Shown here: piece by piece, positions 4,405-52,208 of the stretch
Position numbering within the stretch: position 1 is the first letter of the stretch
How the letters are laid out: the number at the start of each line of letters is the position of its first letter
Origin: an uncultured Acidobacteriota bacterium
GTDB lineage: Bacteria; Acidobacteriota; UBA6911
Reading direction: 5' to 3'
DNA length: 64,000 nucleotides
Assembly: GCA_963843575.1 (NCBI GenBank)
Contig: CAWJKZ010000013.1
Span: 64,001 to 128,000 of the forward strand
Program-made: the position numbers and the translations under genes
Notes under the pieces: model-generated
Told to the model about the DNA's origin: nothing
Seen by the model: only the letters and a program-made list of their open reading frames with translations
Databases searched by the model: none

Positions 4405-4986
4405 ATGGGGGCAGTGCAACAAACCGTTCTTTATGAACAGGCGATGGACCCGCACCTGCTCGAGGAGATCTGCTCCACGCCCGGGGGCGCCAAGATAAAG
4501 GACTGCATCCAGTGCGGCACCTGCAGCGGATCGTGCCCGGTGTCCTGGGCGATGGAGGAGACGCCGCGTCAGATCTTCGCGATGATCCGGGCCGGAATGA
4601 AGGAAAGACTCCTCGACACTCTTACGATCTGGACGTGCGCGTCCTGCTACCAGTGCGCGAGCCGCTGCCCGCAGCAGATCAAGATCACCGACGTCATGTA
4701 TGCGCTCAAGCGCATGGCCATCCGCGAAAACCGCACCCGCAGCAAGAAAGCCCGGCTGTTCGCCCAGGAATTCGCGGCGGTGGTCAACCGGCACGGGCGG
4801 GGCCGAGAGACGGAGCTGATGGTGCGCTACATGCTGGCCACCAACCCTCTCGGCGCGTTGTCCGCGGCCCCTGTCGGCATCAACCTGTTCACGCGCGGCC
4901 GGCTTCCGCTCGGCGGGGGATCGGTGCGCGACATCGCAGGCCTCCGGAAGATCATCGCCAAGGCCGGTGAACTGGGAGGTGAGTGA
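4405..4986 (+). CDS. hdrC: Heterodisulfide reductase subunit C
   Basis: CIQCGTCSGSCP and CASCYQCASRCP motifs. AGGAGG RBS. Confidence 0.92.
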   Translation: MGAVQQTVLYEQAMDPHLLEEICSTPGGAKIKDCIQCGTCSGSCPVSWAMEETPRQIFAMIRAGMKERLLDTLTIWTCASCYQCASRCPQQIKITDVMYALKRMAIRENRTRSKKARLFAQEFAAVVNRHGRGRETELMVRYMLATNPLGALSAAPVGINLFTRGRLPLGGGSVRDIAGLRKIIAKAGELGGE

Positions 4987-5864
4987 TGCGGTACGCGTAT
5001 TTTCCGGGTTGTTCGCTCGATTCCACGGCACGACCTTACGGCGAGTCGGTTGAGGCGGTCGCTTCCGCACTGGGCATGGAACTGGTCGAGGTAGACGACT
5101 GGAACTGTTGCGGCGCGACCGCCTACATGTGCGTAAACGAGATCCTCTCGTTCAGCCTGAACGCCCGCAACCTGTGCCAGGCCTCCAAGACGGGAGGGCC
5201 GCTGGTCACGCCGTGCAGCGCCTGCTTTACGAACCTGCGCAAGACCGAGAAGTATCTGGCAGACTTCCCGGACATAAAGAAGAAGGTCGACGCTGCCCTG
5301 GCCGAGGCGGGTTTGCGCTACGACGGCGGCATCGAGACGAAGCACCTGTTACAGGTGGTCGTCGAGGATGTCGGGCTGGAGCGCCTGAAGAGCGCGGTGA
5401 AAAAGCCGCTAGCAGGGTTGCGGGTCGCACCGTACTACGGCTGCCAGATCGCCAGGCCGTACGGCATCGAAGACGACAGCGACGACCCGACGATGCTCGA
5501 TCGCCTCCTGGCCGGGCTTGGGGCGACGCCCACCCACTTCCCGATGAAGACGGTCTGCTGCGGCGGCTCCCTCATCGGAACCCGCGAGGAAGTCGCCCTG
5601 CGGCTCTGCCGTAACCTGCTCATGTGCGCCCAGCAGGATGCGGCCGACTGTATCGCGGTCGCCTGCCCCGTGTGTCAACTCAACCTGGACGCCTACCAGG
5701 CGGCGATCAACAAGTCCTACGGGACGGACTTCAACATCCCTGTCGTCTATTTCACCCAGCTGATCGGTCTCGCGCTGGGGCTCGAGTCCGACGCCCTCGG
5801 ACTGCAGCGCTGCATCGTGCCGGCGACGAGAGTTTTCGCCCGGTTTGCACAGGAGACGCGATGA
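4986..5864 (+). CDS. hdrB: Heterodisulfide reductase subunit B
   Basis: YFPGC, WNCCGA, YYGCQ and VCCGG: two CCG domains. Confidence 0.93.
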   Translation: MRYAYFPGCSLDSTARPYGESVEAVASALGMELVEVDDWNCCGATAYMCVNEILSFSLNARNLCQASKTGGPLVTPCSACFTNLRKTEKYLADFPDIKKKVDAALAEAGLRYDGGIETKHLLQVVVEDVGLERLKSAVKKPLAGLRVAPYYGCQIARPYGIEDDSDDPTMLDRLLAGLGATPTHFPMKTVCCGGSLIGTREEVALRLCRNLLMCAQQDAADCIAVACPVCQLNLDAYQAAINKSYGTDFNIPVVYFTQLIGLALGLESDALGLQRCIVPATRVFARFAQETR

Positions 5865-6724
5865 ACACCAAAATCGGGGTTTATATCTGCCACTGCGGCA
5901 CCAATATTTCCGGCAAGGTAAACGTCTCCGAAGTCACGGAGTTCGCCCGGACGCTCCCCGCCGTAGCGGTCGCGCGGGAGTACAAGTTCATGTGCTCGGA
6001 TCCCGGCCAGATCCTCATACAGGACGATATCAAGAACGCGGGGCTGGACCGGGTCGTGGTGGCTTCCTGCTCCCCTCTGATGCACGAGCCGACCTTCCGA
6101 GGCGCCTGCGAGCGCGCGGACCTCAATCGCTATCTCTTCCAGATGGCGAACATCCGCGAGCATTGTTCCTGGGTGACGGTCGACCCGAATGCGGCGACCG
6201 ACAAGGCGAAGGCACTGGTGGCGGCCGCGGTCGCAAAGGCGTCGGCGCTGGACCCGCTCCCGCGCAAGACGGTCCCAGTCAAAAATGCCGCCGTGGTGGT
6301 TGGGGGCGGCATCGCGGGGATACAGGCGGCACTCGACATCGCGGATTCCGGGCGCACCGTGTACCTGATCGAGCGCGAGCCCTCGATCGGGGGGCACATG
6401 GCCCGCTTCGACAAGACCTTCCCGACGCTCGACTGCGCGGCGTGCATCCTCACGCCGAAGATGGTGCAGGTGGGCAAGCACCCCAACATCAAGCTGATGC
6501 CCTCGACCGAGGTGGAGGAGGTCAGCGGCTTTGTCGGCAACTTCCGGGTGAAGGTCCGGCACAAGGCGACCTACGTGGACAAGGACAAGTGTTCGGGGTG
6601 CGGCATGTGCTGGGAGTCCTGCCCGGCCCGGAAGATCCCTGCGCGCCGGGTGATTCGAAAGGGAAAGCTCATGATCGGTCGGAGCGCCAACGGGAACGGT
6701 TTCCACGGCGGCAGCGCGAAATGA
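5861..6724 (+). CDS. hdrA: Heterodisulfide reductase subunit A, N-terminal half (split hdrA)
   Basis: GVYICHCG, ASCSP, REHCSW, GGGIAG FAD motif, DKTFPTLDCAAC and one CxxCxxCxxxCP. Stops after ~287 aa with an ATGA overlap into the next gene. Confidence 0.9.
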   Translation: MNTKIGVYICHCGTNISGKVNVSEVTEFARTLPAVAVAREYKFMCSDPGQILIQDDIKNAGLDRVVVASCSPLMHEPTFRGACERADLNRYLFQMANIREHCSWVTVDPNAATDKAKALVAAAVAKASALDPLPRKTVPVKNAAVVVGGGIAGIQAALDIADSGRTVYLIEREPSIGGHMARFDKTFPTLDCAACILTPKMVQVGKHPNIKLMPSTEVEEVSGFVGNFRVKVRHKATYVDKDKCSGCGMCWESCPARKIPARRVIRKGKLMIGRSANGNGFHGGSAK

Positions 6725-7083
6725 ACTCACTGCCACAACCGCGGACCCTGACCCTGGCCCAGGTACGGGACATGCTGAACGCCCAGGCCTTCACCGAACT
6801 CGATCTCTCGGCTCCTGTCCAGCGGGTGGGCGCGGCGGATCTGATGAGCGACGTGCTCGCTCTGGGCTGGCCGGGGATGCTCCTGCTGACGGGCCTGGTC
6901 GGCCCCCAGGTGATTCGGACTGCCATCGTGGCGGACCTGTGCGGGGTCGTTTTCGTGCGCGGGAAAAAGCCTAGCGATGACATCCTGGCACTGGCGTTGA
7001 AGGCCCGAATCCCGGTCCTGGGGACGGCACTGACGATGTTCGAGGCGGCGGGGGTGCTCTACGGAGCAATCGGCGGCAGGTGA
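6721..7083 (+). CDS. DRTGG-domain protein
   Basis: AADLMSDVL...LLLTGL...VFVRGKKP pattern typical of hydrogenase-cassette DRTGG proteins. Confidence 0.85.
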   Translation: MNSLPQPRTLTLAQVRDMLNAQAFTELDLSAPVQRVGAADLMSDVLALGWPGMLLLTGLVGPQVIRTAIVADLCGVVFVRGKKPSDDILALALKARIPVLGTALTMFEAAGVLYGAIGGR

Positions 7084-7086
7084 GCG

Positions 7087-7518
7087 ATGGAGCGCGAGGA
7101 GTTCGAGTCCAGCTACCAGGTCGCCGGCCGCGACTTCACGAACGCCGGGAGGGTCTCGACCGACATTAAGGACACGCTCAAGCGCCTCGGCGTCGCCCCG
7201 TCGATCATGCGCAGGGTCGCGATCGCCTGCTACGAGGCGGAGATGAACATAGTCATGTACGCCCATCGCGGGCGGATGGCCCTCCGGGTCAGCCCCCGGG
7301 TGGTGACCATCGAAGCCGCCGACGAAGGACCGGGCATCCAGGACATTGAGCTTGCGATGCAGGAGGGTTATTCGACGGCGACGCCGGAGATGAGAGAAAT
7401 GGGGTTCGGCGCCGGGATGGGGCTGCCGAACATCCGCAGAAACAGCGACGAACTCGAGATCAGTTCCACCGTCGGCCGGGGCACACGGCTGGTGATCCGC
7501 GTGCTCCAATCCGCGTGA
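7087..7518 (+). CDS. Anti-sigma-factor-type Ser/Thr kinase (RsbT/RsbW-like HATPase)
   Basis: YEAEMN, DEGPGI, GYST and GAGMGLPN motifs. Confidence 0.88.
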   Translation: MEREEFESSYQVAGRDFTNAGRVSTDIKDTLKRLGVAPSIMRRVAIACYEAEMNIVMYAHRGRMALRVSPRVVTIEAADEGPGIQDIELAMQEGYSTATPEMREMGFGAGMGLPNIRRNSDELEISSTVGRGTRLVIRVLQSA

Positions 7519-8852
7519 GGAAGAACGTGGCCGCTCAGTACCATCATTCGTTGCGGTTCGATTCCGAGAATTGCGACGGCTGCATGTCCTGTCTGCGTGC
7601 CTGCCCGACGGCAGCGGTGCGGGTGCGCAACGGCCACGCGGTCAAGCTGGCGGACCGGTGCATCGATTGCGGCGAGTGCATCCGGGTCTGCCCCCGCGGC
7701 GCCATCGTTCCCCTCACAAACCACATGGCCGACCTGTCGAAGTTCGAGTGCACGGTGGCCGTGCCCTCGCCGGCCCTCTACGCCCAGTTCGACGCCGATG
7801 TGTCGCCGGGCGCCATCTTCGCCGCCCTCCGCCAGTGCGGCTTTGACGATGTGGAGTGCCTGTCGCCGGCCTGCGATTCCGTCAGCGCGGCCACCGAGAT
7901 GTACCTCAACGCGTACCGGGGCCAGTATCCTCTTATCTCGTCGTTCTGCCCGACCGTGGTCCGGCTAGTCCAGGTGAAGTATCCCGAACTGGTGGACCAA
8001 CTGCTGCCGGTACTGGCTCCGCGCGAGGTTTCCGCCCGGGACGCCAAGGCCCGCAAATCGGCCGAGACCGGCCTTGCCCCCGATCAGATTGGCGCGGTGT
8101 ACATCACCCCGTGCCCCGGCAAGATGGTGGCCATCCTGGAACACCCCGGCATGCAGAGGTCATATCTTGACACCGCCATCTCCATCAGCGACCTCTTCCA
8201 GACCCTTGCGGCGGCAGTCGCCGGTATCGACGATTCCGAGGCGTACCGGCAGGCCGCCGAAACCGCCTCGGGTGTGAGCTGGGCCTTCATGGGCGGTTTG
8301 CCGCGTTCGCTCCCCGCCGAGAACACCCTCGCGGTCGCCGGCCTCCCCAACGTGATCCGCATCCTGGACGACGTCGAAAAGGGGAAGCTTCGGAGGTACT
8401 CGTTCATCGACTGCCACGCCTGCGCCGAGGGGTGTGTGGGCGGATGCCTCACGGTGGAAAACCCGTACGTGGCGCGCGGCAAGATGATCATGTTGTGGCA
8501 GACACTCCCTGCCGGCCCGGCGCTTGACCGCGACGACGTGGAGCGGCGCTACCGCGAAGGCGCGTTCCTGATGGACGAGCCCCTGGCGAGCCGCCCGCTC
8601 AGGCCGCTCGACGAGGACATCTCGCGTGCCATCGCCAAGATGAAGCAGAGGGACCGGATCGTGGCGACCCTGCCCGGGATCGACTGCGGCGCCTGCGGCG
8701 CTCCGTCTTGCCGGGCCTTTGCCGAGGACGTGGTCCTCGGGGACGCCGGGGAAGAGTCGTGCGTCTTCTTTCTCCAGCAGGAGCTCACCGACAGGATCGA
8801 AGGGCTCGCACGCCTCGTCCAGGGCAAGCGCCCCGATGGAGGCCTGAAATGA
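7515..8852 (+). CDS. [FeFe]-hydrogenase-like Fe-S protein (putative sensory, group D/HydS-like)
   Basis: N-terminal 2x[4Fe-4S]. Divergent H-cluster motifs SSFCP, TPCPGK and CHACAEGCVGG. C-terminal DCGACGAPSC Fe-S domain. Confidence 0.8.
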   Translation: MRKNVAAQYHHSLRFDSENCDGCMSCLRACPTAAVRVRNGHAVKLADRCIDCGECIRVCPRGAIVPLTNHMADLSKFECTVAVPSPALYAQFDADVSPGAIFAALRQCGFDDVECLSPACDSVSAATEMYLNAYRGQYPLISSFCPTVVRLVQVKYPELVDQLLPVLAPREVSARDAKARKSAETGLAPDQIGAVYITPCPGKMVAILEHPGMQRSYLDTAISISDLFQTLAAAVAGIDDSEAYRQAAETASGVSWAFMGGLPRSLPAENTLAVAGLPNVIRILDDVEKGKLRRYSFIDCHACAEGCVGGCLTVENPYVARGKMIMLWQTLPAGPALDRDDVERRYREGAFLMDEPLASRPLRPLDEDISRAIAKMKQRDRIVATLPGIDCGACGAPSCRAFAEDVVLGDAGEESCVFFLQQELTDRIEGLARLVQGKRPDGGLK

Positions 8853-9202
8853 ACGTCGAACAGCTTGCAGCGCAGCTCGGTGCGGAAGTGGTATGCGGGG
8901 GGGCTCGGGCCGCGAGCCGCGAGATCCTCGGCGGCTACGCCTCGGACCTGCTTTCGGACGTGATGGCCAATAGCTGCGAAGGGGACCTCTGGGTGACGCT
9001 GCAGCGGCACGTCAATGTCGTGGCGGTGGCCCAGCTCAAAGGGCTGGCCGGGATCCTCCTGGTGAACGGGCGCCGGCCCGAGCCGGCCGCAGCCGAACGC
9101 GCGGACGTGGAGGGCATTCCGATCGTCACCACGGGATTGCCGGCGTTTGAGGTGATCGGCCGCCTTTGCGGGATGGGCATCGGGGGAAGGAGGTCGGGCT
9201 GA
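8849..9202 (+). CDS. DRTGG-domain protein
   Basis: GYASDLLSDVM...WVTLQRHVNVVAVA pattern. ATGA overlap with the upstream gene. Confidence 0.85.
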   Translation: MNVEQLAAQLGAEVVCGGARAASREILGGYASDLLSDVMANSCEGDLWVTLQRHVNVVAVAQLKGLAGILLVNGRRPEPAAAERADVEGIPIVTTGLPAFEVIGRLCGMGIGGRRSG

Positions 9203-10482
9203 GAGTGTTCATGCTGGACACCCACGTGCACACGTGCCTGTCGCCCTGCGCGGAACTGGAGATGCACCCGGCCGCCGTGGCCGGGGCGGCGGTCTCCTCC
9301 GGGCTGGATGCCGTCGCGGTGTGCGATCACAACTCGGCCGAGAATGCGGCCGCCGTGGCGCGCGCCGCGCACAGGTCCGGCCTCGCGGTGATTCCCGGCA
9401 TGGAGATCACCAGCGCCGAGGAGGTTCACGTCCTCGGCCTCTGTCCGGACCTCGAGGCGGCGCTGGAGCTGCAGGCACGTGTTTACCGCTGTCTGCCCGG
9501 CCGCAACGACGCGCGCGCATTCGGCATGCAGGTGGTGGCCAACGAAGACGAGGAGGTGCTCGGCTTCAACGACCACCTCCTGGCCGGCGCGACCACGATG
9601 GCCGTCGACGCCGTGGTCGACGCGATTCACCGGGTGGACGGCCTCGCCGTGGCGTCGCACGTCGACCGCGAGGCTTTTGGAATCTTCGGGCAGCTCGGCA
9701 TGATCCCGGCCGACCTCCGGTTGGATGCCCTGGAGGTCTCGCGACGCACCCCCCTGCCGTCCGCGCGTGCGTCGTTCGCCCCCGGCGGGGAGTGGACTAT
9801 CCTGTGCGCCTCCGATGCGCACGAGCCGAAGGATGTCGGGCAGGCGGCCACGTACATGCTGCTGCAGGAGCCGACCGTCGCGGAACTGCGCCGCGCTTTC
9901 GCCGGCGAAGGGGGACGGACGGTGCTCGGCGGAGGAATGCCGATGGAGGACTTGGCACTGCACATCCTGGACATCGCACGCAACAGCATCGATGCGGGGG
10001 CGACGGAGATCGAGATCGTCATCGAGGAAGACCTCGCCGGCAACCGGCTCACGATCGAGCTGCGCGACAACGGGCGCGGCATGAGCCCGGAAACACTCTC
10101 CCGGGCCGCGGATCCCTTCTTTACCACGCGCACCACGCGCCGGGTCGGCATGGGGCTGCCGCTGCTCGCCCAGGCCGCCCGCAGCGCCGGAGGCGGGCTC
10201 TCGCTGGAGTCGCAACCCGGGCGCGGGACGAGCGTGCGCGCGGTTTTCGAGCACGGCCACATCGATAGGGCACCCCTGGGAGACCTGGAAACAACCCTGA
10301 TGGTGCTGCTCGCAGGTCATTCGGAGATCGACATCAGGTTCCGGCACAGAGTAGACCACGCGGAGTACGAGCTCGACTCCGCCGACCTGCGCGCTGCCGG
10401 GATCGACGTGGGCTCCCCCGAGGGCCTGATGGCGGTGCGCGGCGTCATACGACAGGGAGAGAGATCGTTGTCCAGGAGCTGA
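9199..10482 (+). CDS. PHP phosphoesterase fused to HATPase kinase domain
   Basis: DTHVHTCLSPC, CDHN and SDAH (PHP), then in frame MEDLALHILDIARNS...DNGRG...RRVGMGLP. Start is probably CTG 9199 after AGGAGG (alternatively ATG 9211). Confidence 0.82.
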   Translation: MRVFMLDTHVHTCLSPCAELEMHPAAVAGAAVSSGLDAVAVCDHNSAENAAAVARAAHRSGLAVIPGMEITSAEEVHVLGLCPDLEAALELQARVYRCLPGRNDARAFGMQVVANEDEEVLGFNDHLLAGATTMAVDAVVDAIHRVDGLAVASHVDREAFGIFGQLGMIPADLRLDALEVSRRTPLPSARASFAPGGEWTILCASDAHEPKDVGQAATYMLLQEPTVAELRRAFAGEGGRTVLGGGMPMEDLALHILDIARNSIDAGATEIEIVIEEDLAGNRLTIELRDNGRGMSPETLSRAADPFFTTRTTRRVGMGLPLLAQAARSAGGGLSLESQPGRGTSVRAVFEHGHIDRAPLGDLETTLMVLLAGHSEIDIRFRHRVDHAEYELDSADLRAAGIDVGSPEGLMAVRGVIRQGERSLSRS

Positions 10483-10539
10483 ACCGGGCGTGGTCGAGGG
10501 AACGCGAGACGCGGACAGGAACTGACTTTGGGAGGAAAC

Positions 10540-11028
10540 ATGGTCGACGTCACAAGGGTTCGGGAAATCGTCGGTCGTCACGGCGGTAAACGGGAGCACA
10601 TGATCGCCATCCTGCTCGACTGCCAGGAAGAATACTGCTATCTGCCGCGGGAGGTTCTCGAGGAGCTGTCGGTCCAGATCGACACGCCGCTGACCTCCGT
10701 GCTTTCGATCGCCACGTTCTTCCGTGCCTTCAGCCTCAAGCCGGTGGGCCGCCACCAGGTCCACGTCTGCATGGGCACCGCCTGCAACATCCAGGGGGGG
10801 CCCCGGCTGGTCGAGGCGCTCGAACGCGAGCTGAAGATCAAGAAGGGCGAAACCACGCCGGACATGCAGTTCAGCCTCGACACGGTCAACTGTGTCGGGT
10901 GCTGCGGGCTCGCCCCGGTCATCACCGTCGGACAGGACGTGCACGGAAAACTGAAGCAGTCTTCCATCCCGAGGATTCTGAAGAAGTACAGGTCAAAGGA
11001 GGCAAGCGATGCCGAGACTGTCCATTGA
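10540..11028 (+). CDS. HydC/HndA/NuoE-like [2Fe-2S] subunit
   Basis: CMGTAC and CVGCCGLAP motifs. GGAGG RBS. Confidence 0.92.
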   Translation: MVDVTRVREIVGRHGGKREHMIAILLDCQEEYCYLPREVLEELSVQIDTPLTSVLSIATFFRAFSLKPVGRHQVHVCMGTACNIQGGPRLVEALERELKIKKGETTPDMQFSLDTVNCVGCCGLAPVITVGQDVHGKLKQSSIPRILKKYRSKEASDAETVH

Positions 11029-11392
11029 GGATCTCAAGCGGATACGCGACGAGTCGCGGCACATCCTCACGCTCAGGTCGGGGGAGGCCCGGGCGAAGGT
11101 GACGGTCCACATGGGTACCTGCGGCATTTCGGCCGGTGCGCGCGACGTCATGGGCGCCCTGCTGAAGGCCATCGAGGAACGCAAGATCACCGACGTGATC
11201 GTCACTACGTCGGGTTGTGCCGGGCTCTGCAGCCGGGAGCCGATGGCGACCGTGGAGCTCGCCGGCCAGCCACCGGTCAAGTACGTCGACCTCAAACCGG
11301 ACCGCATGATCCGCATACTGCAGGAGCACGTGCTCGAGGGCAGAATCGTCACCGACTTCGCGCTGGCCAGGGGCTGTGAGACGACCGGCTAG
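11009..11392 (+). CDS. HydD/HndB-like thioredoxin-fold subunit
   Basis: VHMGTCGISAGA and SGCAGLCSREP motifs. Confidence 0.88.
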   Translation: MPRLSIEDLKRIRDESRHILTLRSGEARAKVTVHMGTCGISAGARDVMGALLKAIEERKITDVIVTTSGCAGLCSREPMATVELAGQPPVKYVDLKPDRMIRILQEHVLEGRIVTDFALARGCETTG

Positions 11393-11469
11393 CCTTCCGG
11401 GACGCCCCGAAAACATCGGAAGGCGCGCAGCGCTTTGATCCGCACGTTTTTGCTGGAGGGAAGGGAGAG

Positions 11470-13309
11470 ATGGCATTCCGCACAAATGTTCTGGTTTGCG
11501 CAGGGACCGGGTGCGTGTCCGGGAACTCCTTTGCGACGGCCCGGGCGCTGGAGACCGAGGTGAAGAAACGGGGCCTGGGAGACGAAATCCAGGTGATACG
11601 CACAGGGTGCCAGGGCTTCTGCGCCGAGGGACCCATCGTGATTGTGCAGCCGGACGGCGTCTTCTACTGCGGCGTGGCCGCCAAGGACGCGCCGTACCTG
11701 GTGGAGGAACATTTCCTGAAAGGCCGGCCGGTGCAGAGGCTGATGTACTCGCCGCCGAAGGAAAAGAGCCCCATCCCGGCGCTCAAGGAGATTCCCTTCT
11801 TCGCCAAGCAGAAGCTGGTCGTGCTGCGCAACCGCGGGGCCATCGACCCGGAGCGCATCGACGACTACATCGCCGTGGACGGTTACACCGCACTGGTCAA
11901 AGCCCTGAGAGATGACGCCCGAGCAGATCATCCGGGAGATCAAGAAGTCGGGGCTGCGCGGGCGCGGCGGCGGCGGCTTTCCGACCGGCATCAAGTGGGA
12001 GACCTGCCGCCACGCAGCGAAACAGCGCAACGAGGAACCCGTCGTCGTCTGCAACGCCGACGAAGGCGACCCCGGGGCCTTCATGGACCGCAGCATCATC
12101 GAGAGCGACCCGCACTCCGTCCTCGAGGGGATGATCATCGGCGCGCGGGCGATCGGCTGCAAAGAGGGCTTCGTCTACATCCGGCACGAGTATCCCATTG
12201 CGCGCGAACGCCTGCTCAAGGCCATCGAGCAGGCGCGCGACTACGGCCTCCTCGGCAAGGGCATCCTGGGCTCCGAAATGGATTTCGACGTCGAGATCGT
12301 CCAGGGGGCGGGCGCATTCGTCTGCGGCGAATCGACGGCTCTCATGGCTTCGCTGGAGGGGAAGGCCGGCGAACCGCGCGCCAAGTACATCCACACGGTG
12401 GAGTACGGGTACAAGAACCGGCCGACGAACCTGAACAACGTCGAGACCTGGGCCAACGTCCCGCTGATCATCAGCCGCGGCGCCGAGTGGTTCGCGTCGA
12501 TGGGGACCGGCGAGGTCAGCGAGAATCCCTGGAACGGAAGCAGCGGGACCAAGGTGTTCTCGATGGTCGGCAAGGTGAACAACACCGGGCTGATCGAGGT
12601 CCCGATGGGCCTGACGCTGCGCGAGATCGTCTTCGACATTGGCGGCGGCATCGCGGGCGGCAGCAAATTCAAGGCGGTGCAGACCGGTGGTCCTTCCGGA
12701 GGGTGCCTCCCGGAAGAGCTGCTGGACATGCCGGTCGACTTCGACAGCCTGACCGAAGCGGGCTCGATGATGGGGTCCGGGGGCATGATCGTCATGGACG
12801 ACCAGACCTGCATGGTCGACGTGGCGCGCTACTTCATCGCCTTCCTGACCGAGGAGTCGTGCGGCAAGTGCGTGCCGTGCCGTGAGGGGTTGCGCACCTC
12901 GCTCGACACCCTCACCCGCATCTCGGAAGGCAAGGGGACCGAACACGACATCGAGCTCCTGTACGAGATCGGCGCCGTCATGCAGGACTGCTGTCTGTGC
13001 GCGCTGGGCACGTCCGCCCCGAACCCGGTGCTGTCGACGCTGCGCTATTTCAAGGAGGAGTACGACGCCCACATCAAGGACCACGTCTGCCCGGCGGGCG
13101 TCTGCAAGGACCTGATCGAGTACAGGATCGACGCGGAGAAGTGCGACGGGTGCCACGCCTGTGTGAAAGGCTGCTCCCCCGCGGCCATCGGGGGCGCGGT
13201 CAAGGAGAAGCACTCCATCGACGGGGACAAGTGCATCAAGTGCGGCGCCTGCCTTGAGGTGTGCAAGCGCGACGCGATCGTGAAAGTTCCGAGGAGTCAT
13301 GCGGCATGA
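11470..13309 (+). CDS. HydB/HndC/NuoF-like FMN- and NAD(H)-binding subunit (apparent frameshift near 11908)
   Basis: N-terminal CAGTGC/GCQGFC, then [41 protein letters not shown] and a C-terminal 2x[4Fe-4S]. The two ORFs join if one base is removed. Confidence 0.9.
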
Positions 13310-15064
13310 AGACCATCAAAGTGAAGATCAACGGGATCGAAGCCGAGGCTGCGGACCGCACCCCCATCCTGAACATCGCCGAAAAACTGGGGATCAAGAT
13401 CCCCACGCTGTGCCACCACCCGATCCTGGAACCCTATGGCGTGTGCCGCGTGTGCACCGTCGAGGTCCGCTCGGGCAAACGCGTCCGGATGGTGACGGCC
13501 TGCAATTACCCGGCGACGAACGGCATCGAGGTGCTGACCGATTCCGAGCGGGTCCGGCGCGACCGTAAGCTGATCATCGAGTGGCTGATGTCGCGCTGCG
13601 GGCACGTGCCGGTGATCGAGCAGCTCGCGGCCGAGTACGGCATCACGGAACCGCGGTTCGGACGCGGCGACGACGACTGCATCCTGTGCGGGCTCTGCGT
13701 GCGCGTCTGCTCCGACGTCGTCGGCGCCAATGTCCTCGGGTTCTTCAACCGCGGCACGACTCGCGAGGTCTCGACCGCCTACGGCGAGACCTCGGACAAA
13801 TGCATCGCCTGCGGGGCGTGTGCCCACGTCTGCCCCACAGGCGCAATCCGGATCGAGGACGACGCGGCCCTGGTCCAGAAAGAGCTCCCGATGGGGCCGC
13901 TCACCCCGATCGGCATCCCGTTCATGCAGGCGGTGCCGCACCAGCCGGTGATCGACCGCGATTCGTGCATTCACTTCAAGACCGGCGCGTGCAAGGTGTG
14001 CGAAAAGGTCTGCGAGGTGAAGGCGATCGACCACAGCCAGCAGGACCGCGTCGAGGAACTCGAGGTCGGGGCCGTCGTGCTGGCCACCGGCTTCCAGACC
14101 TTCGACGCCAGGAAGATCCCCGAGTACGGCTACGGCAGGTTCGACAACGTCCTGACCGGCATGGAGTTCGAAAAAATGAACAGCGCTTCGGGCTCGACCG
14201 GCGGCCGGATCCTCATGGCCGACGGCAAGGCCCCGAAGTCGGTGGGGATCATTCACTGCGTCGGCAGCCGCGACCAGCGCCACAACAAGCACTGCTCGCG
14301 CGTCTGCTGCATGTACGCGCTGAAGTTCGCACACCTGATCAAGGAGAAGACCGAGGCCGAGGTCTACAACTTCTACATCGACATGCGCTGCTTCGGAAAG
14401 GGCTACGAGGAGTTCTATCACCGCCTGCTGGAGGAGGGAGTGCGGTTCATCCGGGGCCGGGCCGCGTCGGTCACGGACTTCCCGTTGAACGAACACGAGC
14501 GCGGCAAGCTGATCATCCGCGTCGAGGACACGCTGCTCGGCCAGGTGCGGCGCATCCCGGTCGACATGGTCGTGCTGGCCACAGGGCTCGAAGCCGCAGA
14601 AGGCGCGGCCGAACTCGCCCGCACCTTCCACATCAGCTGCCAGCGGCGGTTTCTTCACCGAGCGGCACCCGAAGCTCGCCCCGGTGTCGACGGCCACGGA
14701 CGGGATCTACATCGCCGGCGCGTGCCAGGGGCCGAAGGACATCCCCGACACGGTCGCACAGGCCTCCGCGGCGGCGTCGCAGGTGCAGGCGCTGATGGCC
14801 AAGGGGGAGATCGAGGTCGAGTCCGCCACGAGCATCGTGGATGCCGAGAAGTGCGCCGGGTGCAGGATCTGCAACACCCTCTGCTCGCTCTCGGCCATCA
14901 GCTTCGACGAGGAGAGGCACGTGTCGGTGATCAACGACGTGCTCTGCAAAGGGTGCGGCACCTGCGCTGCGGCATGCCCGAGCGCTGCCATCATCGCGCG
15001 GCACTTCACCGACGAGCAGCTGTTCGCCGAAATAGAAGGAGCTCTGTATGACGTTCGAGCCTAA
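13306..15064 (+). CDS. Fusion of HydA/NuoG-like Fe-S arm with HdrA C-terminal half (apparent frameshift near 14641)
   Basis: [2Fe-2S] (TLCHH..CRVC..AC) and 2x[4Fe-4S], then HdrA motifs [38 protein letters not shown]. After the shift come [15 protein letters not shown] and a C-terminal ferredoxin. Confidence 0.88.
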
Positions 15065-15485
15065 GATCGTGGGCATTCTCTGCAACTGGTGCTCGTACAC
15101 GGGCGCGGACCTGGCCGGAACCGCCCGCATCAAGTACGCCCCGAACGTGCGCATGATGCGTGTCATGTGCTCCGGCCGAGTCGACCCGACCTTCGTGCTG
15201 AAGGCGTTCGCCGACGGGGCCGACGGGGTGCTCGTCGCCGGGTGCCACCCGGGAGACTGCCACTACATCGACGGGAACTACAAGACCCTGCGCCGCATGG
15301 CGCTGCTGAAGAAGCTGCTCGCCGACTACGGTATCGAGCCGGAACGGTTCCGGCTGGAGTGGGTGTCCGCCTCGGAGGGCGACCGCTGGGCCGAGGTCGT
15401 CAACGGCATCACCGAAGACGTCCGCAGGCTCGGTCCGGCGAAGTTCAAGTCGAAAGGGAAAAAACGAGCCGCCCCGGCGGCCTAG
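15048..15485 (+). CDS. mvhD: MvhD [2Fe-2S] subunit
   Basis: CNWCSYTGAD, MCSGRV and GCHPGDCHY motifs. Confidence 0.95.
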   Translation: MTFEPKIVGILCNWCSYTGADLAGTARIKYAPNVRMMRVMCSGRVDPTFVLKAFADGADGVLVAGCHPGDCHYIDGNYKTLRRMALLKKLLADYGIEPERFRLEWVSASEGDRWAEVVNGITEDVRRLGPAKFKSKGKKRAAPAA

Positions 15486-15498
15486 CACACAGTCTCAT

Positions 15499-15631
15499 AA
15501 GTACGCTGACCTATTTTTCAGGACGCAGAAAACACGGGCGATGAAAGAGAAAAGCCAAAACAGAACGCAGATTCCGCGGGAATCCGCCTCCTGAAAAATG
15601 CGTTAGCGTATTTGCGAACATCAGTACCTAG
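15499..15631. repeat. MITE-like intergenic element, copy 1
   Basis: Imperfect inverted repeats at 15499-15523 and 15589-15613. Shares a 30-nt identical block and a 43-nt block with 35592-35781. Confidence 0.7.
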
Positions 15632-15670
15632 CAGACGCGGGCTGCACATCTACCGGTATTCGGAGGAAGC

Positions 15671-16627
15671 ATGGCGAAACTGAAATTGGCGTCCTACTGG
15701 GCGGCCGCATGCGGGGGATGCGACGTGGGGATCCTGGACCTGCACGAGAAGATCCTGGACCTCGCGGCAGCCGCGGACATCGTCTTCTGGCCCATCGCGC
15801 TCGATTTCAAGTACGAGGATGTCGAGGCCATGCCGGACGGCCACATCGACGTGACCCTGTTTCACGGGGCCGTCCGCAACTCCGAGAACGAGCATCTGGC
15901 GCGGCTGCTGCGCGCCAAGTCCAAGGTCCTGGTCGCATTCGGGACCTGCGCCCACATCGGCGGCATACCGGGCCTGGCCAACCTGTTCGACAAGAAGTCG
16001 ATCTTTCAGCGTGTCTACCACGACTCCCCCTCGACGGTGAACCCCGACGGCGTCGAACCCCAGCCTCGCTCCAGGGTGCCGGAAGGTGAAATTACGATCC
16101 CGGAGTTCTACGACACGGTCCGGTCCCTGGACCAGGTGGTCGACGTCGAGTACTATGTCCCCGGCTGCCCGCCGACCCCGAAGCAGATCTGGAAGGTGGT
16201 GGAGACGATCGTGTCGGGGCAACTGCCACCGCCCGGCGCCGTCATCGGCGCGTCGGAAAAGACGCAGTGCGACGAGTGCACGCGCAAGAAGAGCGAAAAG
16301 AAGATCACCGGATTCAAACGGATCGCGACCGCACAGCCCGATCCGGACACCTGTTTTCTCGACCAGGGTTTCCTGTGCGTCGGCCCCGTGACCCGGGGCG
16401 GATGCGACACCCGCTGCCAGCTGTCGGGAGTCGCCTGCCGCGGCTGCTATGGCCCGCCGCCGGGAGTGCTCGACCAGGGAGCAAAGGCGATCTCGGCCAT
16501 CGCCTCCGTGATCGAGGCCAAGGACGAGGCTGAGGTAGAACGCATAATCGCAGAGATCCCCGACCCGCTCCGGAGCTTTAACCGGTTCGGCATCCCGGGA
16601 TCCTTATTGGTGAGGAAAGCATTATGA
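15671..16627 (+). CDS. mvhG: Group 3c [NiFe]-hydrogenase small subunit
   Basis: CGGC, GTCA, PGCPP, CDEC, CFL..G..C.GP and CRGCYG motifs. Confidence 0.92.
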   Translation: MAKLKLASYWAAACGGCDVGILDLHEKILDLAAAADIVFWPIALDFKYEDVEAMPDGHIDVTLFHGAVRNSENEHLARLLRAKSKVLVAFGTCAHIGGIPGLANLFDKKSIFQRVYHDSPSTVNPDGVEPQPRSRVPEGEITIPEFYDTVRSLDQVVDVEYYVPGCPPTPKQIWKVVETIVSGQLPPPGAVIGASEKTQCDECTRKKSEKKITGFKRIATAQPDPDTCFLDQGFLCVGPVTRGGCDTRCQLSGVACRGCYGPPPGVLDQGAKAISAIASVIEAKDEAEVERIIAEIPDPLRSFNRFGIPGSLLVRKAL

Positions 16628-18084
16628 AGCGCATTTCGATTGATCCCATCACGCGGCTGGAGGGGCACGGCAAGATCGACATCTTCCTGGCCGACGACGG
16701 CAGCGTCGCAAACTGCTACTTCCAGGTGCCCGAGCTGCGCGGCTTCGAGAAGTTCGTCGAAGGCATGCCGGCCGAGGAAGTCCCGCGCGTGGTGTCGCGC
16801 ATCTGCGGCGTCTGACCGGCCGCACACCATTTGGCCTCGGGTAAGGCCATAGATGCAGTCTACAAGGTCGATCCGCCGGTCACGGCGAAGAAGCTGCGCG
16901 AGCTCTACTACAGCGCTCACTTCATGCACAGCCACATAGCCCACTTCTACGCGCTCGCCGCCCCCGACTTCGTCGTGGGCCCGGACGCCGATCCCGCGAA
17001 GCGGAACATCCTCGGCATCGTGGAAAAAGTCGGGGTCCCCGTGGCGGCCGAAGTCCTCAAACACCGCGCCATCGCGCAGGACATCCAGATCATGGTGGGG
17101 GGCAGGTCGACCCACCCCGTCTGGACTCTGCCGGGCGGCGTGTCCAAGGGGATCACCGACGCTCAGCGGCTGGAGATCGTCGAGAAGGCGAAATCGTGCG
17201 TGGAGTTCGCCAGGTTCTCCCTGAAGCTGTTCGAGGACATCGTACTCCAGAACAAGACCTACCTCGACCTGGTCCTCTCGGACATCTACGAGCTCGACTC
17301 GTACTGGATCGGGACCGTCGACGAGAAAAACCGGGTGAACTTCTACCAGGGCGAGCACCGCGTCGTGGATCAGGACGCCAAGGAAGTCTTCCGGTACAAG
17401 GACCACGAGTACCTCGATTTCATCTCGGAACGGGTCGAGCAGTTCAGCTACCTGAAGTTCCCCTTCCTGAAGAAGATCGGCTGGAAGGGGCTCGTAGCCG
17501 GACGTGACTCGGGCGTGTACCAGGCGACCCCGCTCTCGCGGCTCAACGCGGCCGACGGGATGGCGACGCCGCTGGCGCAGGCCGAGTACGAGAAGATGTA
17601 CAAAACCCTCGGCGGCAAACCTGTGAAAAAGCTCCTGGCCACGCACTGGGCGCGGCTGGTCGAGTTGCTGTACGCGGCCGAGCGGATGCTCGAGCTGGCC
17701 CAGGACCCGCAGGTCGCGTCGACCGACATCCGCACCCTCCCGACGGCGGTCCCGGAAGAGGGCATCGGGATCGTCGAGGCGCCGCGTGGAATCCTGACCC
17801 ATCACTACAAGACAGACCGGAACGGGCTCATCACCGAAGCGAACCTCGTCGTGGGAACGACGAATAATCATGCGCCGATCTCGCTGGCGATCAAGCAGGC
17901 CGCCCAGCGGCTCATCCAGCCCGGAAAGGCGATCGGGCAGGATCTCCTCAACATGGTGGAGATGGCGTTCCGGATCTTTGACCCGTGCTTCTCGTGCGCG
18001 ACCCACTCCCTGCCGGGGGAAATGCCCCTCGTCGTGGAGGTCCACGCCGCCGACGGCACCGTGGTCCACCGCGTTTCGCGGTAG
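16624..18084 (+). CDS. mvhA: Group 3c [NiFe]-hydrogenase large subunit, predicted selenoprotein (UGA at codon 64)
   Basis: TRLEGHG, RGFE, then RICGV-TGA-PAAHHLAS continuing in the same frame to EAPRG and DPCFSCATH plus a C-terminal extension. 486 aa with readthrough. Confidence 0.9.
16816..16856 (+). promoter_or_regulatory. Candidate bacterial SECIS element
   Basis: Stem TGGCCT (16832-16837) / AGGCCA (16844-16849) with loop CGGGTA starting 22 nt after the TGA. Stem extends via CAT/ATG. Confidence 0.75.
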
Positions 18085-18126
18085 CACCTGCGCGTCGGGC
18101 GGCGCGTGGCAATCAGCGGAATAACG

Positions 18127-18179
18127 AAGCCGGAAGTCAGGACCCGGGAACGGCTGCTGGCTTCCGGCTTTTGGCTTTT
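18127..18179 (+). terminator. Hairpin with T-tract after mvhA
   Basis: AAGCCGGAAGTCAG...CTGGCTTCCGGCTT followed by TTGGCTTTT. Confidence 0.5.
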
Positions 18180-18234
18180 GGCGCGAACCAGATTCACGTT
18201 ACGCAGCACATAACGGACTGCCGCGATACACCCT

Positions 18235-18732
18235 ATGCGAACGCGGGTAATTGGTCTGGGCAACAGCCTCCTGTCCGACGACGGCGTCGGGATTTACGCG
18301 GCCCGGGAAGTGGCGCGCCGACTCGCCGGGACCGCTCGCGCGGATCCGGTGGACGTAACCGAGTCGGAAGTGGCGGGCTTCGCCCTGATGGAGCTGATGG
18401 CCGGCTGGGACCGCGTCGTGCTCGTCGACTCCGTTGTGTTCGAAGGAGTCGAACCGGGTACGGTCCTGCAGCTGGCGGCCGACGACCTGCACACCTCTCT
18501 CCGGCTGCGTTCCGTGCACGATATCGACCTCCCTACCGCCCTCGAACTCGGCCGTCGCCTCGGCCTGAGTATGCCGTCCGATGTCGTGATCTTCGGCATC
18601 CAGGTCCTGGATCCGTACACCCTGGGGGAAACCCTCACGGAACCTGCAGCCGCCGGACTGCGCGCCGCGACAGACCTGATCCTCCGGGAATTAATTCCCG
18701 CCGACTGCCCCAATTTCCTGCCGCCCTTGTAG
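18235..18732 (+). CDS. Hydrogenase maturation protease (HycI/HybD family)
   Basis: VIGLGNSLLSDDGVG, VDS and SVHD motifs. Follows a large subunit that has a cleavable tail. Confidence 0.93.
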   Translation: MRTRVIGLGNSLLSDDGVGIYAAREVARRLAGTARADPVDVTESEVAGFALMELMAGWDRVVLVDSVVFEGVEPGTVLQLAADDLHTSLRLRSVHDIDLPTALELGRRLGLSMPSDVVIFGIQVLDPYTLGETLTEPAAAGLRAATDLILRELIPADCPNFLPPL

Positions 18733-26326: not shown

Positions 26327-26933
26327 TCAGGCGGATTCGGAGACGAACCGGAGTGTGCGGTGCTTGTCCAGCGTGTCGCTCCCGAGAACCTTGCTCAGAT
26401 ACACCTTGGACTCGTCGTTGTCCGAGGGATTGCGCTTGAAACCGACCACGTTGAAACCCAGGTCGGCCAGTGTGGCTCGCATTGTGTGGAACTTGTTCTT
26501 CGTCTTGACGGCCAACTCCTGGTATCCGTGCTCGACGGCCCACACTTCCTGCTGCTCGGTGAGCGCGCGATAGTGACCCGCGCCGCGCCAGGGGCCCCGC
26601 GTCCCGCCGATCCAGCTGTAGAAGATCCTGCGTCCGCCGAATTCGAGTGCCGTCTCGGAACTCGGCGACAAGTTCCTGAAGCTGCGGGTCGTTCTCCTGC
26701 GCGCTCAGCGCGTGTCCCACCTTGAATGCCACCGGGATGAGCCGGTCGTCGTCGTCGTCGGGGATGGGCGCGAGCGACAGCAGGATCAGATGCTCCCGGG
26801 CGTTCAGGCGGCGGATGATTTCGTCGGCCGTCTTCTTCTTTCTGAACTCGTGAAAGTAGTCCTCGATGTACTGGACTTCGAGCGCCCCTTGCTCCAGCCT
26901 GTACTGACGAATGATGTGCCCCGTTTGCGCCAT
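26327..26933 (-). CDS. GNAT-family acetyltransferase (apparent frameshift near 26652)
   Basis: FKVG, YSWIGG...WRGAG and VKTKNKF motifs spread over two overlapping ORFs. Confidence 0.7.
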
Positions 26934-49683: not shown

Positions 49684-50939
49684 TTACTCGGTGCGGAGGG
49701 CTTCGACGGGGTCCAGGCGCGAGGCTTTTACGGCGGGCCAGGTGCCCGACAGGAGGCCGATGACCAGGAAGGTGGCGAAGGAGGTGAGAAACACGCGCGT
49801 ATCCACCAGCAGGTGAATGTCCCCCTGGCGGCTCTTGTCCTCGAAGAGTTCGCTGAGGAACGGAATCGCGCCGATCCAGCTCGCCAGCAGGATGGCGAGC
49901 ACGTACCCCAGGATGCCGCCGATGCATCGATAGTGCCAGCGCCTCGCCCAGAAACTGCAGCCGGATGTGCCACCGGCGCGCGCCCAGCGCCTTCATGATC
50001 CCGATCTCGTGCGTCCGCTCCTGCACGCAGAAGAGCATGATGTTCATGATGCCGACGCCCGCCACCGCCAGGGTGAAAAGGCCGATCACGTCGAGCAGGG
50101 CGCTTGTCGCCGTCGTCAGCCCGTTGATGATCCCGAAGACCATGCTGAATTTCTGGAAATGCAGCGCCTTTTCGTCGGCGGGATTGAACTTGTGCAGCTC
50201 CGCGAGCACCTGGCGCACCTGCCGGACCGCAGGTTCCTCCAGTGCGCCCGCCACGGGCTGAAATACCAGCACGCTGTTGTGCGTGATGTCCGAGATCGTG
50301 CCCATCACGTTGACCGGCATGATCGCGCAATTGTCGTCCTGGGTGAAATAGTTCGAGATCGCGATCTTTTTCTTGAGCACGCCGATCACGGTGAAGCGAA
50401 CGCCGTTGACGTAGACGTCCTGGTCGATCGCGGGCGCCTGGCTGAAGACCTTCTTCTTCAGGTCGTATCCCAGCACGACGACCCGGCGCATGTATGCGAT
50501 GTCCTCGGCGGCTGATGAAACGCCCCTCACCCATGAACATCCCGCGGATCGCGCCGTACTCGTCGTTGACCGCCCGCACTCCCATCGTCGTGAGCCTGTC
50601 TCCCCACCGCAGCTGCATTTCGCGGTACACCTCGGGGCTGACCCGCTTCACCAGCGTGCAGCGCTGCCGGATCATCTCCACGTCTTCGGGTTTGGTCTGC
50701 ACGACGCGGCCGGCGCGGCTTCCCCCCGCCTGCATGGATGTCTGGCCGTTCCAGACCACGACCACGTTGTCGCCGAAGTACCTCAGCCCGAGGAACATCG
50801 ACCGCTGGAAACCGTCACCGTAGGCCATCAGCAGGATGAAGGAGGCGATCCCCCACGTGATGCCCAAAACCGTCATCACCGAGCGCTTCCGGTAAGCGAC
50901 CAGGTTTTCCAGCACGCGTTTGAAGATCTCGAGAATCAT
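49684..50939 (-). CDS. MacB/FtsX-type ABC permease (apparent frameshifts near 50510 and 49925)
   Basis: [30 protein letters not shown] and DPVEALR pieces spread over three frames. Confidence 0.82.
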
Positions 50940-50944
50940 GGCGG

Positions 50945-52190
50945 TCACTCGTATCTGAGCGCTTCGATGGGGTTCACCAGGGAAGCCATGAACGCGGGAT
51001 AGATGCTCGACAGCACGCCCACCAGCCCAAGGAACCCGAAGGCGACCAACCCGACCTGCGGTGTGACGATCATGCCGGCGAAGAAATCGATTCTGGGGAG
51101 CTGGTTGATCAGGGCGCACAGGCCCCAACCGATGAAGATCCCGGCCAGGCCGGCAAACACGGTCAGGACCATCGACTCGGCGAAGAACTGCATCAGGATG
51201 CGGCGTGTCGTGGCGCCCACGGCCTTGCAGACGCCGATCTCGTGTGTCCGCTCGCCCACCGACAGCAGCATGATGTTCATCACGCCGACCCCGCCGAGAA
51301 TGAGGGTGACGATCGCGACGACGCCTAGGAAGATCCTGAGCGAGGCGAAGAGCCTGAACATGAACTTGGCCTGAGTGACCGTGTTCCAGATCGGCAGGGC
51401 GTCCTTGTCCAGGTAGTCGAACCCCTTGATCCGCGCCATGATCTGGCGCACCTGGAACTCGGCCGCTTCGCCCATTTCCTCGCCGCGGGCCTGCAGGATC
51501 AGGTTCGAGAGACTGTACTTGCCGTCGGCGGCGTCCGGGATCGGAAAGTCCCGCGCAATCGAATAGAACGGAATGAACACCATCTTGGCGTCCGGGACCG
51601 CTGTAGTTCGAGTTCTGCTCCTTGTGCTCCAACTCCCCGATGACCAGGTACGGGAGCTCCCCGATGACGACCGTCTGGCCCACGGCCGAGGCCTTGTTGA
51701 ACAGCTGCTCCTTGACCTCGTCTCCAAGGATGCAGACCCGCTGGGCGCGGGCGTTGTCACCTTCGGTGATCTGGCGACCGCCGGGAACGACCTCGATGGT
51801 GCGCATCTGCATGTAGTCGGCGAACACCCCGTGCACGCCGAACGTGCCGTTGTTGACGGTCGAGCGGACCGGCAGGTAGCGATCGATCTCGGGACTTGTC
51901 CGCTGCAGGTAGGTGGCCTGCTCCTTCAGCCGGAAATAGTCGTCGAGCGTGAACCTGATGTTCCGGCCGGCGCGCACCCCCTGCACTCCTTTGCTGGTCG
52001 TCCCGCCCCAGACGATCATGATGTTCTGGCCGAGCAGCCGGGATTTCTCCTTCTGCGCGACCCACATCCCCTCGCCCAGCGCCGTCATCAGGATCAGGCA
52101 GATCAGCCCCCAGGCGATCCCGAACATCGTAAGGAAGGAGCGGGTCTTGTTGGCCTTCAGGTTCAACCAGGTCTGCCGCAGGAGATCCAT
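50945..52190 (-). CDS. MacB/FtsX-type ABC permease (apparent frameshift near 51596)
   Basis: RSFLTMFGIAWG, GVMNIMLLSVGERTHEIG and NPIEALRYE motifs. Confidence 0.85.
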
Positions 52191-52208
52191 GCTCGTCGCG
52201 CCTCCACC

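Follow-up and report, generated by a model that had tools for sequence, protein, structure and literature searches.

The window analyzed here is a stretch of 64,000 nucleotides from an uncultured Acidobacteriota bacterium (assembly GCA_963843575.1, contig CAWJKZ010000013.1, positions 64,001 to 128,000 of the forward strand). The genome assembly comprises 6.68 Mb in 27 contigs and is rated 88% "complete"; its closest named relatives are Acidobacteriota metagenome-assembled genomes (MAGs). Between positions 4405 and 18732, all on the + strand, Pfam and PDB comparisons revealed a run of genes in the order hdrC-hdrB-hdrA(N)-five sensor genes-hydC-hydD-hydB-[arm::hdrA(C)]-mvhD-mvhG-mvhA-protease (Table 1). 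Here, hdrA(N) and hdrA(C) are two parts of a split hdrA, hydC and hydB encode the core of a HydABC-type (Bfu) enzyme, and the arm is a HydA-type iron-sulfur (Fe-S) segment. All of the genes named in the initial annotation were found, on the + strand and in the order that it had given. ATGA/GTGA-type or longer overlaps occur at seven gene junctions of the operon. The gene order is far beyond chance, and the whole of it is collinear in four relatives (G014, G017, G004, and G006), with amino acid identities of 57 to 95% per gene.

The unusual feature of this operon is its HdrA. All HdrA domains are present and align to solved HdrA, but they are on two polypeptides encoded 6.6 kb apart. HdrA(N) consists of the N-terminal Cys cluster domain, the GxGxxG motif for flavin adenine dinucleotide (FAD), and the first CxxCxxCxxxCP motif of the inserted ferredoxin domain, after which there is a stop codon. 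The remainder is in the fusion protein, in which residues 163 to 443 (or from 149) align to HdrA residues 251 to 517 (or from 230) of chain 8rvu_a. Because HdrA(N) reaches HdrA residue 266 and the fusion starts at residue 251, ferredoxin motif 1 is present in both halves. When the two halves were used as queries, they overlapped at this motif in 39 loci with an intact hdrA. The cut is within the inserted ferredoxin domain, and the Bfu module occupies that insertion point. The same ferredoxin-domain site carries a GltD/NfnB-like insert (Fer4_20 plus Pyr_redox_2) in a Myxococcales hdrCBA-mvhDGA locus (L093, 7709 to 11071), where HdrA is intact and 1,121 aa long.

The N-terminal part of the fusion protein is the arm. 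Residues 4 to 186 align to a 247-aa NuoG-like chain (9mqx_A, 5e-39; we guess from the depositors' names that 9mqx is the Bam complex discussed below) and to residues 1 to 212 of NiFe-HydA (7t2r_A). The arm has no catalytic domain of its own and matches HydA/NuoG-like arms; the HdrA flavin would be its "third substrate." It joins the rest of the inserted ferredoxin domain and the remaining HdrA without a linker, and the copy of motif 1 in the fusion doubles as the second motif of the arm's 2x[4Fe-4S] domain. There are three ferredoxin motifs in the fusion and one more at the end of HdrA(N). The 16 Cys residues of these four motifs and the four [2Fe-2S] Cys residues are all invariant in 18 split N-halves and 19 aligned fusions from at least seven phyla. 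This pattern fits a chain of four [4Fe-4S] clusters and one [2Fe-2S] cluster, which would be built partly from two polypeptides. Longer fusions of about 1,080 aa, in which the arm and the HdrA C-part are followed by a second HdrA-like unit, were seen in three other places (L019, 10766 to 14002; G319:C23; and G166:C16).

Further fusions link the two modules. The short HydA-type arm is fused to the HdrA C-half in 33/33 split loci from the species scan described below. In five loci (four from Planctomycetota and one from a MAG labeled "archaeon"), HdrA(N) and HydC are also encoded by one open reading frame (ORF), in which about six residues separate the two homology blocks (L053, 3520 to 4842; likewise L054, L057, L062, and L066). 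Therefore, with HdrA(N)::HydC at one end and arm::HdrA(C) at the other, the Bfu module is attached to both cut ends of HdrA. This double attachment is strong Rosetta-stone evidence that the parts belong to a single complex. The HydC homologue of the Bam structure contacts the arm subunit through its N-terminal bundle (bioRxiv 10.64898/2026.04.10.717634), and this contact fits a topology with the Bfu module at both ends of HdrA.

The Bfu module itself can be seen in relative G014, which has an intact HydB. Residues 3 to 606 align end to end with residues 4 to 596 of NiFe-HydB (7t2r_B, E = 6.1e-228), matching the N-terminal [2Fe-2S] Cys residues, the flavin mononucleotide (FMN)/NADH region, the NuoF-type [4Fe-4S] site, and the C-terminal 2x[4Fe-4S] domain. 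The HydB motifs reported by the initial annotation (GAFM, GGPSGG, VDF, four N-terminal Cys residues, a C-terminal H/C site, and two CxxCxxCxxxC motifs) are legible in the window's translations. Judged by these alignments and by Pfam, the BfuBC core (HydB and HydC) is complete and is accompanied by a short BfuA-like arm.

To see how far the arrangement extends, species representatives were scanned. Of 560 relatives, the best 80 loci were kept and scored with all gene queries, seven of which served as markers (hdrB, hdrA N-half, hydC, hydB, arm fusion, mvhD, and mvhA). The arm fusion and hydB were found together in 33 of these loci, and 24 had all seven markers. One further locus had the arm fusion at a contig start, and the remaining 46 had no arm by the criterion used, including a split operon with broken frames (L033). 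The 33 split loci come from Acidobacteriota (20), Planctomycetota (4), Aminicenantota (2), and, with one each, Fidelibacterota, Eiseniibacteriota, Bacillota, Sumerlaeota, Nitrospirota, an unclassified bacterium, and the "archaeon" MAG, so that the split architecture occurs in at least eight named bacterial phyla plus that MAG. MvhDGA is kept in all 24 complete loci. Most loci without the arm are plain hdrCBA-mvhDGA operons with an intact hdrA, for example, in Chloroflexota, Bacteroidota, Ignavibacteriota, and Myxococcota. Two loci (L047 and L069) have the HdrA C-part and mvhDGA, and hdrCB, the hdrA N-half, and hydBC were not found in up to 10 kb upstream.

Within the window's phylum, a near-full-length fusion (about 590 aa) is present in 25 of 401 evenly sampled genomes, twice in three of them. 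In a set of 41 genomes (the window's own and 40 relatives), the fusion protein is full length with 81 to 85% identity in six genomes of four genera and has 52% identity in G007; the complete run of genes is collinear there. One genome within these denominators (G034) is flagged as unpublished. The initial annotation had allowed for a misjoin at one of two junctions and for an arrangement confined to this genome. Neither is the case: split hdrA with hydBC and mvhAGD, for which it had proposed a synteny search, recurs, and the same junctions are present in many genomes. A chimera made by misassembly at about 6724 or 13870 is effectively ruled out by their recurrence in the 24 complete loci, which come from independent assemblies and many phyla. 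Furthermore, the junction at about 13870 is inside one conserved ORF (584 to 618 aa in relatives), which also speaks against a misjoin there.

The hydrogenase genes complete the operon. The MvhA orthologue has MvhA chain 5odc_F as its best PDB match (E = 2.8e-111), and 7t2r_D is nearly as close (4.7e-104). By these comparisons, the HdrCBA-MvhDGA set is complete and contains a group-3 [NiFe] hydrogenase, the nearest solved relatives of which are the methanogen MvhA/Vhu chains. We take the N-terminal RxCGxC and C-terminal DPCxxC motifs to be the nickel-binding motifs of the large subunit and the second Cys of the N-terminal motif to be a ligand bridging Ni and Fe. The C-terminal motif is DPCFSC, with its Cys residues kept. 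In the N-terminal motif, codon 64, at the position of the second Cys, is TGA (RICGV-TGA). This TGA is common to three of seven relatives' loci, and the other four have a Cys codon. In 67 further loci, the same codon is TGA in 9 and TGC or TGT in 58. The TGA forms have a hairpin about 19 nucleotides (nt) 3' of the TGA, which most Cys forms do not have; in L041, a locus from Fidelibacterota/Neomarinimicrobiota, this place is taken by a hairpin that differs. The window's genome also has tRNA-Sec, SelA, and SelB. Because TGA alternates with Cys codons, the hairpin accompanies the TGA forms, and the selenocysteine machinery is present, codon 64 of mvhA most likely encodes selenocysteine.

This putative position for selenium differs from the familiar one. 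In the available text of a 2026 review, the C-terminal UxxC is the only selenocysteine site listed for MvhA/VhuA/VhuU and FrhA. Here, the TGA is in the N-terminal motif and the C-terminal motif has Cys. Two short contigs from one study (X2 record 16 and X4 record 32) match the window exactly through the TGA, but they may come from its source sample and are not independent support. The Myxococcales locus L093 likewise has a TGA in mvhA. Two more [NiFe] large-subunit loci are in the same genome as the window, on contigs C24 (490007 to 491272) and C15 (242795 to 244024).

Table 1. Genes and other features of the Hdr-Hyd-Mvh operon (positions are those of the window)
Feature	Position	Strand	Evidence
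hdrC (2x[4Fe-4S] subunit)	4405-4986	+	Pfam Fer4_8/Fer4_17, best 6.7e-11; collinear in relatives, 71-90% identity
hdrB (two CCG domains)	4983-5864	+	Pfam CCG, 2 stretches, E 7.7e-25
hdrA N-half, 287 aa	5861-6724	+	Residues 3-256 align to HdrA 12-266 (8rvu_a, E 1.9e-101)
DRTGG protein (cassette gene 1)	6721-7083	+	Pfam DRTGG 21.1 bits, below 25.2 cutoff; conserved in relatives
HATPase_c_2 protein (cassette gene 2)	7087-7518	+	Pfam E 4.2e-9
[FeFe]-hydrogenase-like putative sensor (2x[4Fe-4S] + H-domain + PF04060), 445 aa (cassette gene 3)	7515-8852	+	Fe_hyd_lg_C 9.2e-28, PF04060 3.5e-13
DRTGG protein (cassette gene 4)	8849-9202	+	Pfam DRTGG E 3.3e-6
PHP + HATPase_c protein (cassette gene 5)	9208-10482 (start possibly 9166)	+	Pfam PHP, PHP_C, HATPase_c
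hydC/BfuC (NuoE-like [2Fe-2S])	10540-11028 (start possibly 10528)	+	Pfam 2Fe-2S_thioredx E 1.5e-45 over 12-155
hydD (small thioredoxin-like), 127 aa	11009-11392	+	Weak 2Fe-2S_thioredx match, E 0.0058; 79-91% in close relatives
hydB/BfuB, two frames	11470-13309	+	Complex1_51K 8.3e-44, SLBB, NADH_4Fe-4S 7.2e-31, C-terminal Fer4 pair
Fusion of arm ([2Fe-2S] + 2x[4Fe-4S]) and HdrA C-half, two frames	13306-15064	+	Fer2_4 8.9e-13, two Fer4 motifs
mvhD	15048-15485	+	Pfam FlpD E 3.4e-55; overlaps end of hdrA C-half gene
mvhG ([NiFe] small subunit)	15671-16627	+	Pfam Oxidored_q6 E 3.2e-25
mvhA ([NiFe] large subunit), in-frame TGA at 16813-16815	16624-18084	+	Pfam NiFeSe_Hases
Hairpin resembling a selenocysteine insertion sequence, 19 nt 3' of TGA	16832-16849	+	RNA fold
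HycI-type hydrogenase maturation protease	18235-18732	+	Pfam HycI E 2.7e-11

Between the two hdrA halves, upstream of hydC, is a cassette of five genes encoding, in order, a DRTGG protein, an HATPase, an H-cluster protein, a second DRTGG protein, and a PHP-HATPase. The H-cluster protein is [FeFe]-hydrogenase-like and is the only Fe_hyd_lg_C match in the genome. It has kept the four H-cluster Cys residues, and Phe replaces the adjacent Cys of TSCCP. The genome also encodes a full-length HydF maturase and a piece of HydG (contig C27, 3955 to 7372). Because the H-cluster Cys residues are kept and HydF and a HydG piece are present, this protein may be a matured H2 sensor. The cassette is putatively an accessory, H2-sensing regulatory set and would not be a catalytic part of the enzyme. 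It is optional among the 33 split loci: five genes are present in 16, four in 5, one in 2 (on cut contigs), and none in 10. In Planctomycetota, the cassette follows hydB and precedes the fusion gene, and no match to the H-cluster protein was found in it.

Two genes of the operon, hydB and the fusion gene, have broken frames in this assembly. Compared with six of six relatives (G014, G017, G004, G006, G012, and G021), in all of which both genes are single frame, hydB has 2 nt missing after 11908 (site 11905 to 11912) and the fusion gene has 1 extra base near 14640 (site 14635 to 14645). This could mean that the operon is decaying in this organism, with real breaks and no HydB or HdrA(C) made, and the restriction of both breaks to the window fits that explanation. 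However, such breaks are not restricted to the operon. An unrelated, duplicated MacB_PCD-FtsX permease gene (49684 to 52208, - strand) is in at least four frames, with frame changes that cut through its Pfam domains; selA, which is on a different contig, is split into four frame pieces; the HydG match begins only at profile position 198; and a genome of the same genus (G001) has many breaks along the operon. The coding sequence after each break in hydB and the fusion gene is still 81 to 93% identical to that of relatives, and the genome is only 88% "complete" despite being in just 27 contigs, all of which argues against decay. Therefore, with an unrelated permease gene and selA also broken, HydG partial, breaks in G001, and intact genes in the relatives, the two breaks in the operon are very probably assembly errors. 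Two points go the other way: neither break is a simple homopolymer slip, and among the contigs of four sequencing runs, which held only 6 to 9% of the sampled words, there was no read-derived contig spanning either break. Even so, we regard decay as quite improbable. There is possibly an additional break near 26645.

We compared the operon with known systems. All six subunits of methanogen MvhAGD-HdrABC (group 3c; PDB 5ODC and 8RVU/8RVV) are also present here, and the two systems share an FlpD-type MvhD, two CCG domains in HdrB, and two [4Fe-4S] motifs in HdrC. The order hdrCBA-mvhDGA is common to many bacteria. Unlike MvhAGD-HdrABC, however, HdrA here is on two polypeptides with motif 1 in both halves, HydC-HydD-HydB-arm and the five-gene cassette are encoded between them, TGA takes the place of the second Cys codon in the N-terminal nickel motif, and the host is a bacterium. 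NiFe-HydABCSL of Acetomicrobium mobile (PDB 7T2R/7T30; PMC9304861) has HydB, HydC, and the N-terminal HydA-type arm in common with this operon, and its own operon also has hisK and hydD, the products of which are outside the holoenzyme. In that enzyme, HydA links HydS directly to HydBC, so that electrons enter the Bfu core at the potential of H2. Here, in contrast, MvhD, the FAD-containing HdrA, and HdrBC stand in between, and the arm is limited to a [2Fe-2S] and a 2x[4Fe-4S] site.

The closest parallel for the combination of modules is Bam[(BC)2DEFGHI]2 of Geobacter metallireducens (bioRxiv 10.64898/2026.04.10.717634). As here, it combines a HydBC-type unit (BamGH), a NuoG-like arm (BamI, with clusters I1 to I3), an MvhD-like adaptor, and an HdrA-type flavoprotein in one complex. 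The preprint describes a hierarchical coupling of two bifurcation modules, in which the HydBC-type module feeds the HdrA-type module. However, Bam has no hydrogenase, it has BamD instead of HdrBC, its arm is a free subunit on the input side, and its low-potential exit leads to a tungsten subunit. In the operon described here, the arm forms one chain with the exit domain, H2 would be the input, and HdrBC is kept. By Pfam, genes for the tungsten AOR-type BamB/BamC and for BamD are absent from the run, which has those for HdrB, HdrC, and MvhAG instead. Therefore, the principle of coupling a HydBC-type to an HdrA-type module is already established by the 2026 Bam preprint, and it is the wiring that differs here.

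More distant parallels are the HdrL-type fusions of HdrA and glutamate synthase in Desulfobacterium autotrophicum (PMC2702500), in which an HdrA-type protein is joined to an NAD(P)H-binding module, and the nuoGEF-mvhD-hdrA clusters of Desulfotignum phosphitoxidans (PMC4046663), in which the genes merely adjoin. Unlike the present operon, neither has, in the text available, a split HdrA or a hydrogenase together with HdrBC. The Bfu survey of Schut et al. 2022 omitted metagenomic sequences, and the only HdrA-linked type in its available part is Bam-Bfu (PMC9304861). The available text of papers on archaeal fusion and fission (PMC11237513) and on hybrid hydrogenases (PMC11216029) does not have this architecture. 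Our literature search found no description of it; the HdrA-module review of Appel et al. 2021 and the supplements of Schut et al. 2022, where there might be a Bfu clade with Hdr/Mvh neighbors, were outside that search. The view of the initial annotation that this is not a characterized enzyme held up within this literature.

We think that the operon probably encodes one soluble Mvh-Hdr-Bfu complex in which the low-potential exit of HdrA is hard-wired into the HydBC core. A single complex had been proposed in the initial annotation, and the comparisons add support for it: the arm fusion in all split loci, the Cys residues invariant in 19/19 fusions, HdrA(N)::HydC in five loci, and occurrence in at least eight phyla. 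In HdrA-type modules, low-potential electrons leave through the inserted ferredoxin domain (bioRxiv 10.64898/2026.04.10.717634, section 7). In Bfu enzymes, electrons of a third substrate enter via BfuA and are split between NAD+ and ferredoxin (PMC9304861).

How such a complex might work can be outlined tentatively. H2 would be oxidized by MvhAG, and the electrons would pass via MvhD to the HdrA FAD and be bifurcated there. The high-potential electron would go to HdrBC and a disulfide. The low-potential electron would stay off free ferredoxin and instead pass along the shared Fe-S chain to the arm and on to the FMN/Fe-S site of HydB. That site would split the flow a second time, between NAD+ and ferredoxin. 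In effect, disulfide reduction would "boost" H2 electrons such that the HydABC-type reaction could still run at low H2, and the reaction would be expected to be reversible. The potentials given in the sources available are -414 mV for H2, -140 mV for the heterodisulfide, about -280 mV for NADH, and about -500 mV for ferredoxin. By our own arithmetic, the coupling would leave a large driving force for ferredoxin reduction. We infer both the passage of electrons through the two flavin sites and the direction of flow. The full proposal is a serial double bifurcation: at the expense of disulfide reduction, half of the H2 electrons would be lifted at the HdrA FAD and passed along a fixed Fe-S wire to a HydBC site, which would bifurcate them again to NAD+ and ferredoxin. 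In some members of the family, selenium would also take the position of the second RxCGxC Cys. As a whole, this is possible, but we consider it doubtful enough to be put forward only as a working model.

Several points weigh against this interpretation. Every carrier seen is a MAG. From the sequence, the ferredoxin motif of the N-half could have either the arm or the C-half as its pairing partner. BamE has a permuted set of HdrA domains, and electrons from the Bfu arm there enter on the input side, made up of the C-terminal ferredoxin domain and MvhD-like BamF (bioRxiv 10.64898/2026.04.10.717634). Judging by BamE, the order of genes and domains says little about how a complex is wired. The phylogenies are also less simple than a single origin of the architecture would predict. 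A tree of the HdrA C-part with 67 rows, 39 of them from intact-hdrA loci (L033, L034, and L065 were dropped for stops or short length), needs seven changes of the split/intact label, and placing the 26 split rows in a single clade is rejected (approximately unbiased [AU] test, p = 7.4e-5). In a HydB tree of 52 rows, rooted on NuoF-like paralogues, four nonsplit HydB paralogues from hydC-hydB-short-arm loci nest among all 31 HydBs of split operons, in a weakly supported group with a Shimodaira-Hasegawa-like approximate likelihood ratio (SH-aLRT) of 81. Because the HdrA tree rejects one clade and the HydB group is mixed, we do not claim a single insertion event. The history is apparently not that simple and may have been one insertion followed by recombination, or repeated insertions. 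Free hydC-hydB-short-arm triplets whose HydBs nest among those of split operons are found in relatives at L127, L109, L110, and L128, and in G012 there are large HdrA-like ORFs on the same contig as a free triplet.

The modules could also be connected in the order seen in Bam. HydBC would then be a confurcating input, passing mid-potential electrons from NADH and reduced ferredoxin to the HdrA FAD, and the hydrogenase would serve as a second possible donor or as a valve that releases H2. The main activity of the complex would be to reduce disulfide, or to make H2, from NADH and ferredoxin. This is how the only solved complex of Bfu and HdrA operates, and Bfu enzymes are reversible (PMC9304861). 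The nearest nonsplit HydB paralogues, with their hydC-hydB-short-arm triplets, are also of that general kind. However, the arm here is continuous with the inserted ferredoxin domain, which is the exit in HdrA and BamE. It does not continue into the C-terminal ferredoxin domain or into MvhD, the places at which BamI docks. The full MvhDGA input module in 24/24 complete loci also counts against this scheme, and with Bfu as an input, there would be no low-potential exit left. This makes the Bam-like order rather unlikely.

HydBC might instead be merely a diaphorase, with NAD+ replacing ferredoxin on the low-potential branch of HdrA and the complex acting as an H2:disulfide + NAD+ oxidoreductase. 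The Myxococcales relative, in which a GltD/NfnB-type module for NAD(P)H occupies the same point of HdrA, lends this some credit by suggesting that pyridine nucleotide is the wanted partner. We nevertheless find it hard to believe, because HydB keeps every element of bifurcating HydB/BfuB proteins, including the N-terminal [2Fe-2S] site and the C-terminal 2x[4Fe-4S] ferredoxin-binding domain, and is accompanied by HydC. Moreover, both half-reactions would be exergonic from H2, so that bifurcation at HdrA would be purposeless. A single complex in which the HdrA exit feeds HydBC is the interpretation that we retain. The genomic observation is confirmed and the single-complex interpretation is supported by the comparisons between genomes; the mechanism is a proposal.

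Electron bifurcation is the route by which anaerobes obtain low-potential ferredoxin. To our knowledge, it is confined to a handful of enzyme families, which were studied as stand-alone modules until the 2026 Bam preprint. If the hard-wired complex proposed here is real, it would add to Bam another enzyme with two bifurcation sites, one that is wired differently and is much more widespread, and it would tie H2, NAD(H), ferredoxin, and a thiol/disulfide couple together. The architecture is a natural test of hard-wiring the low-potential exit of HdrA to another flavin site. The TGA in mvhA points to a selenocysteine position that is not listed for known [NiFeSe] hydrogenases in the literature available to us. 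If the serial double bifurcation operates, soil and sediment bacteria of many phyla could make NADH and reduced ferredoxin from H2 at partial pressures where the plain HydABC-type reaction is endergonic. The architecture would also alter the reading of "group 3c" hydrogenase genes from soil and sediment metagenomes.

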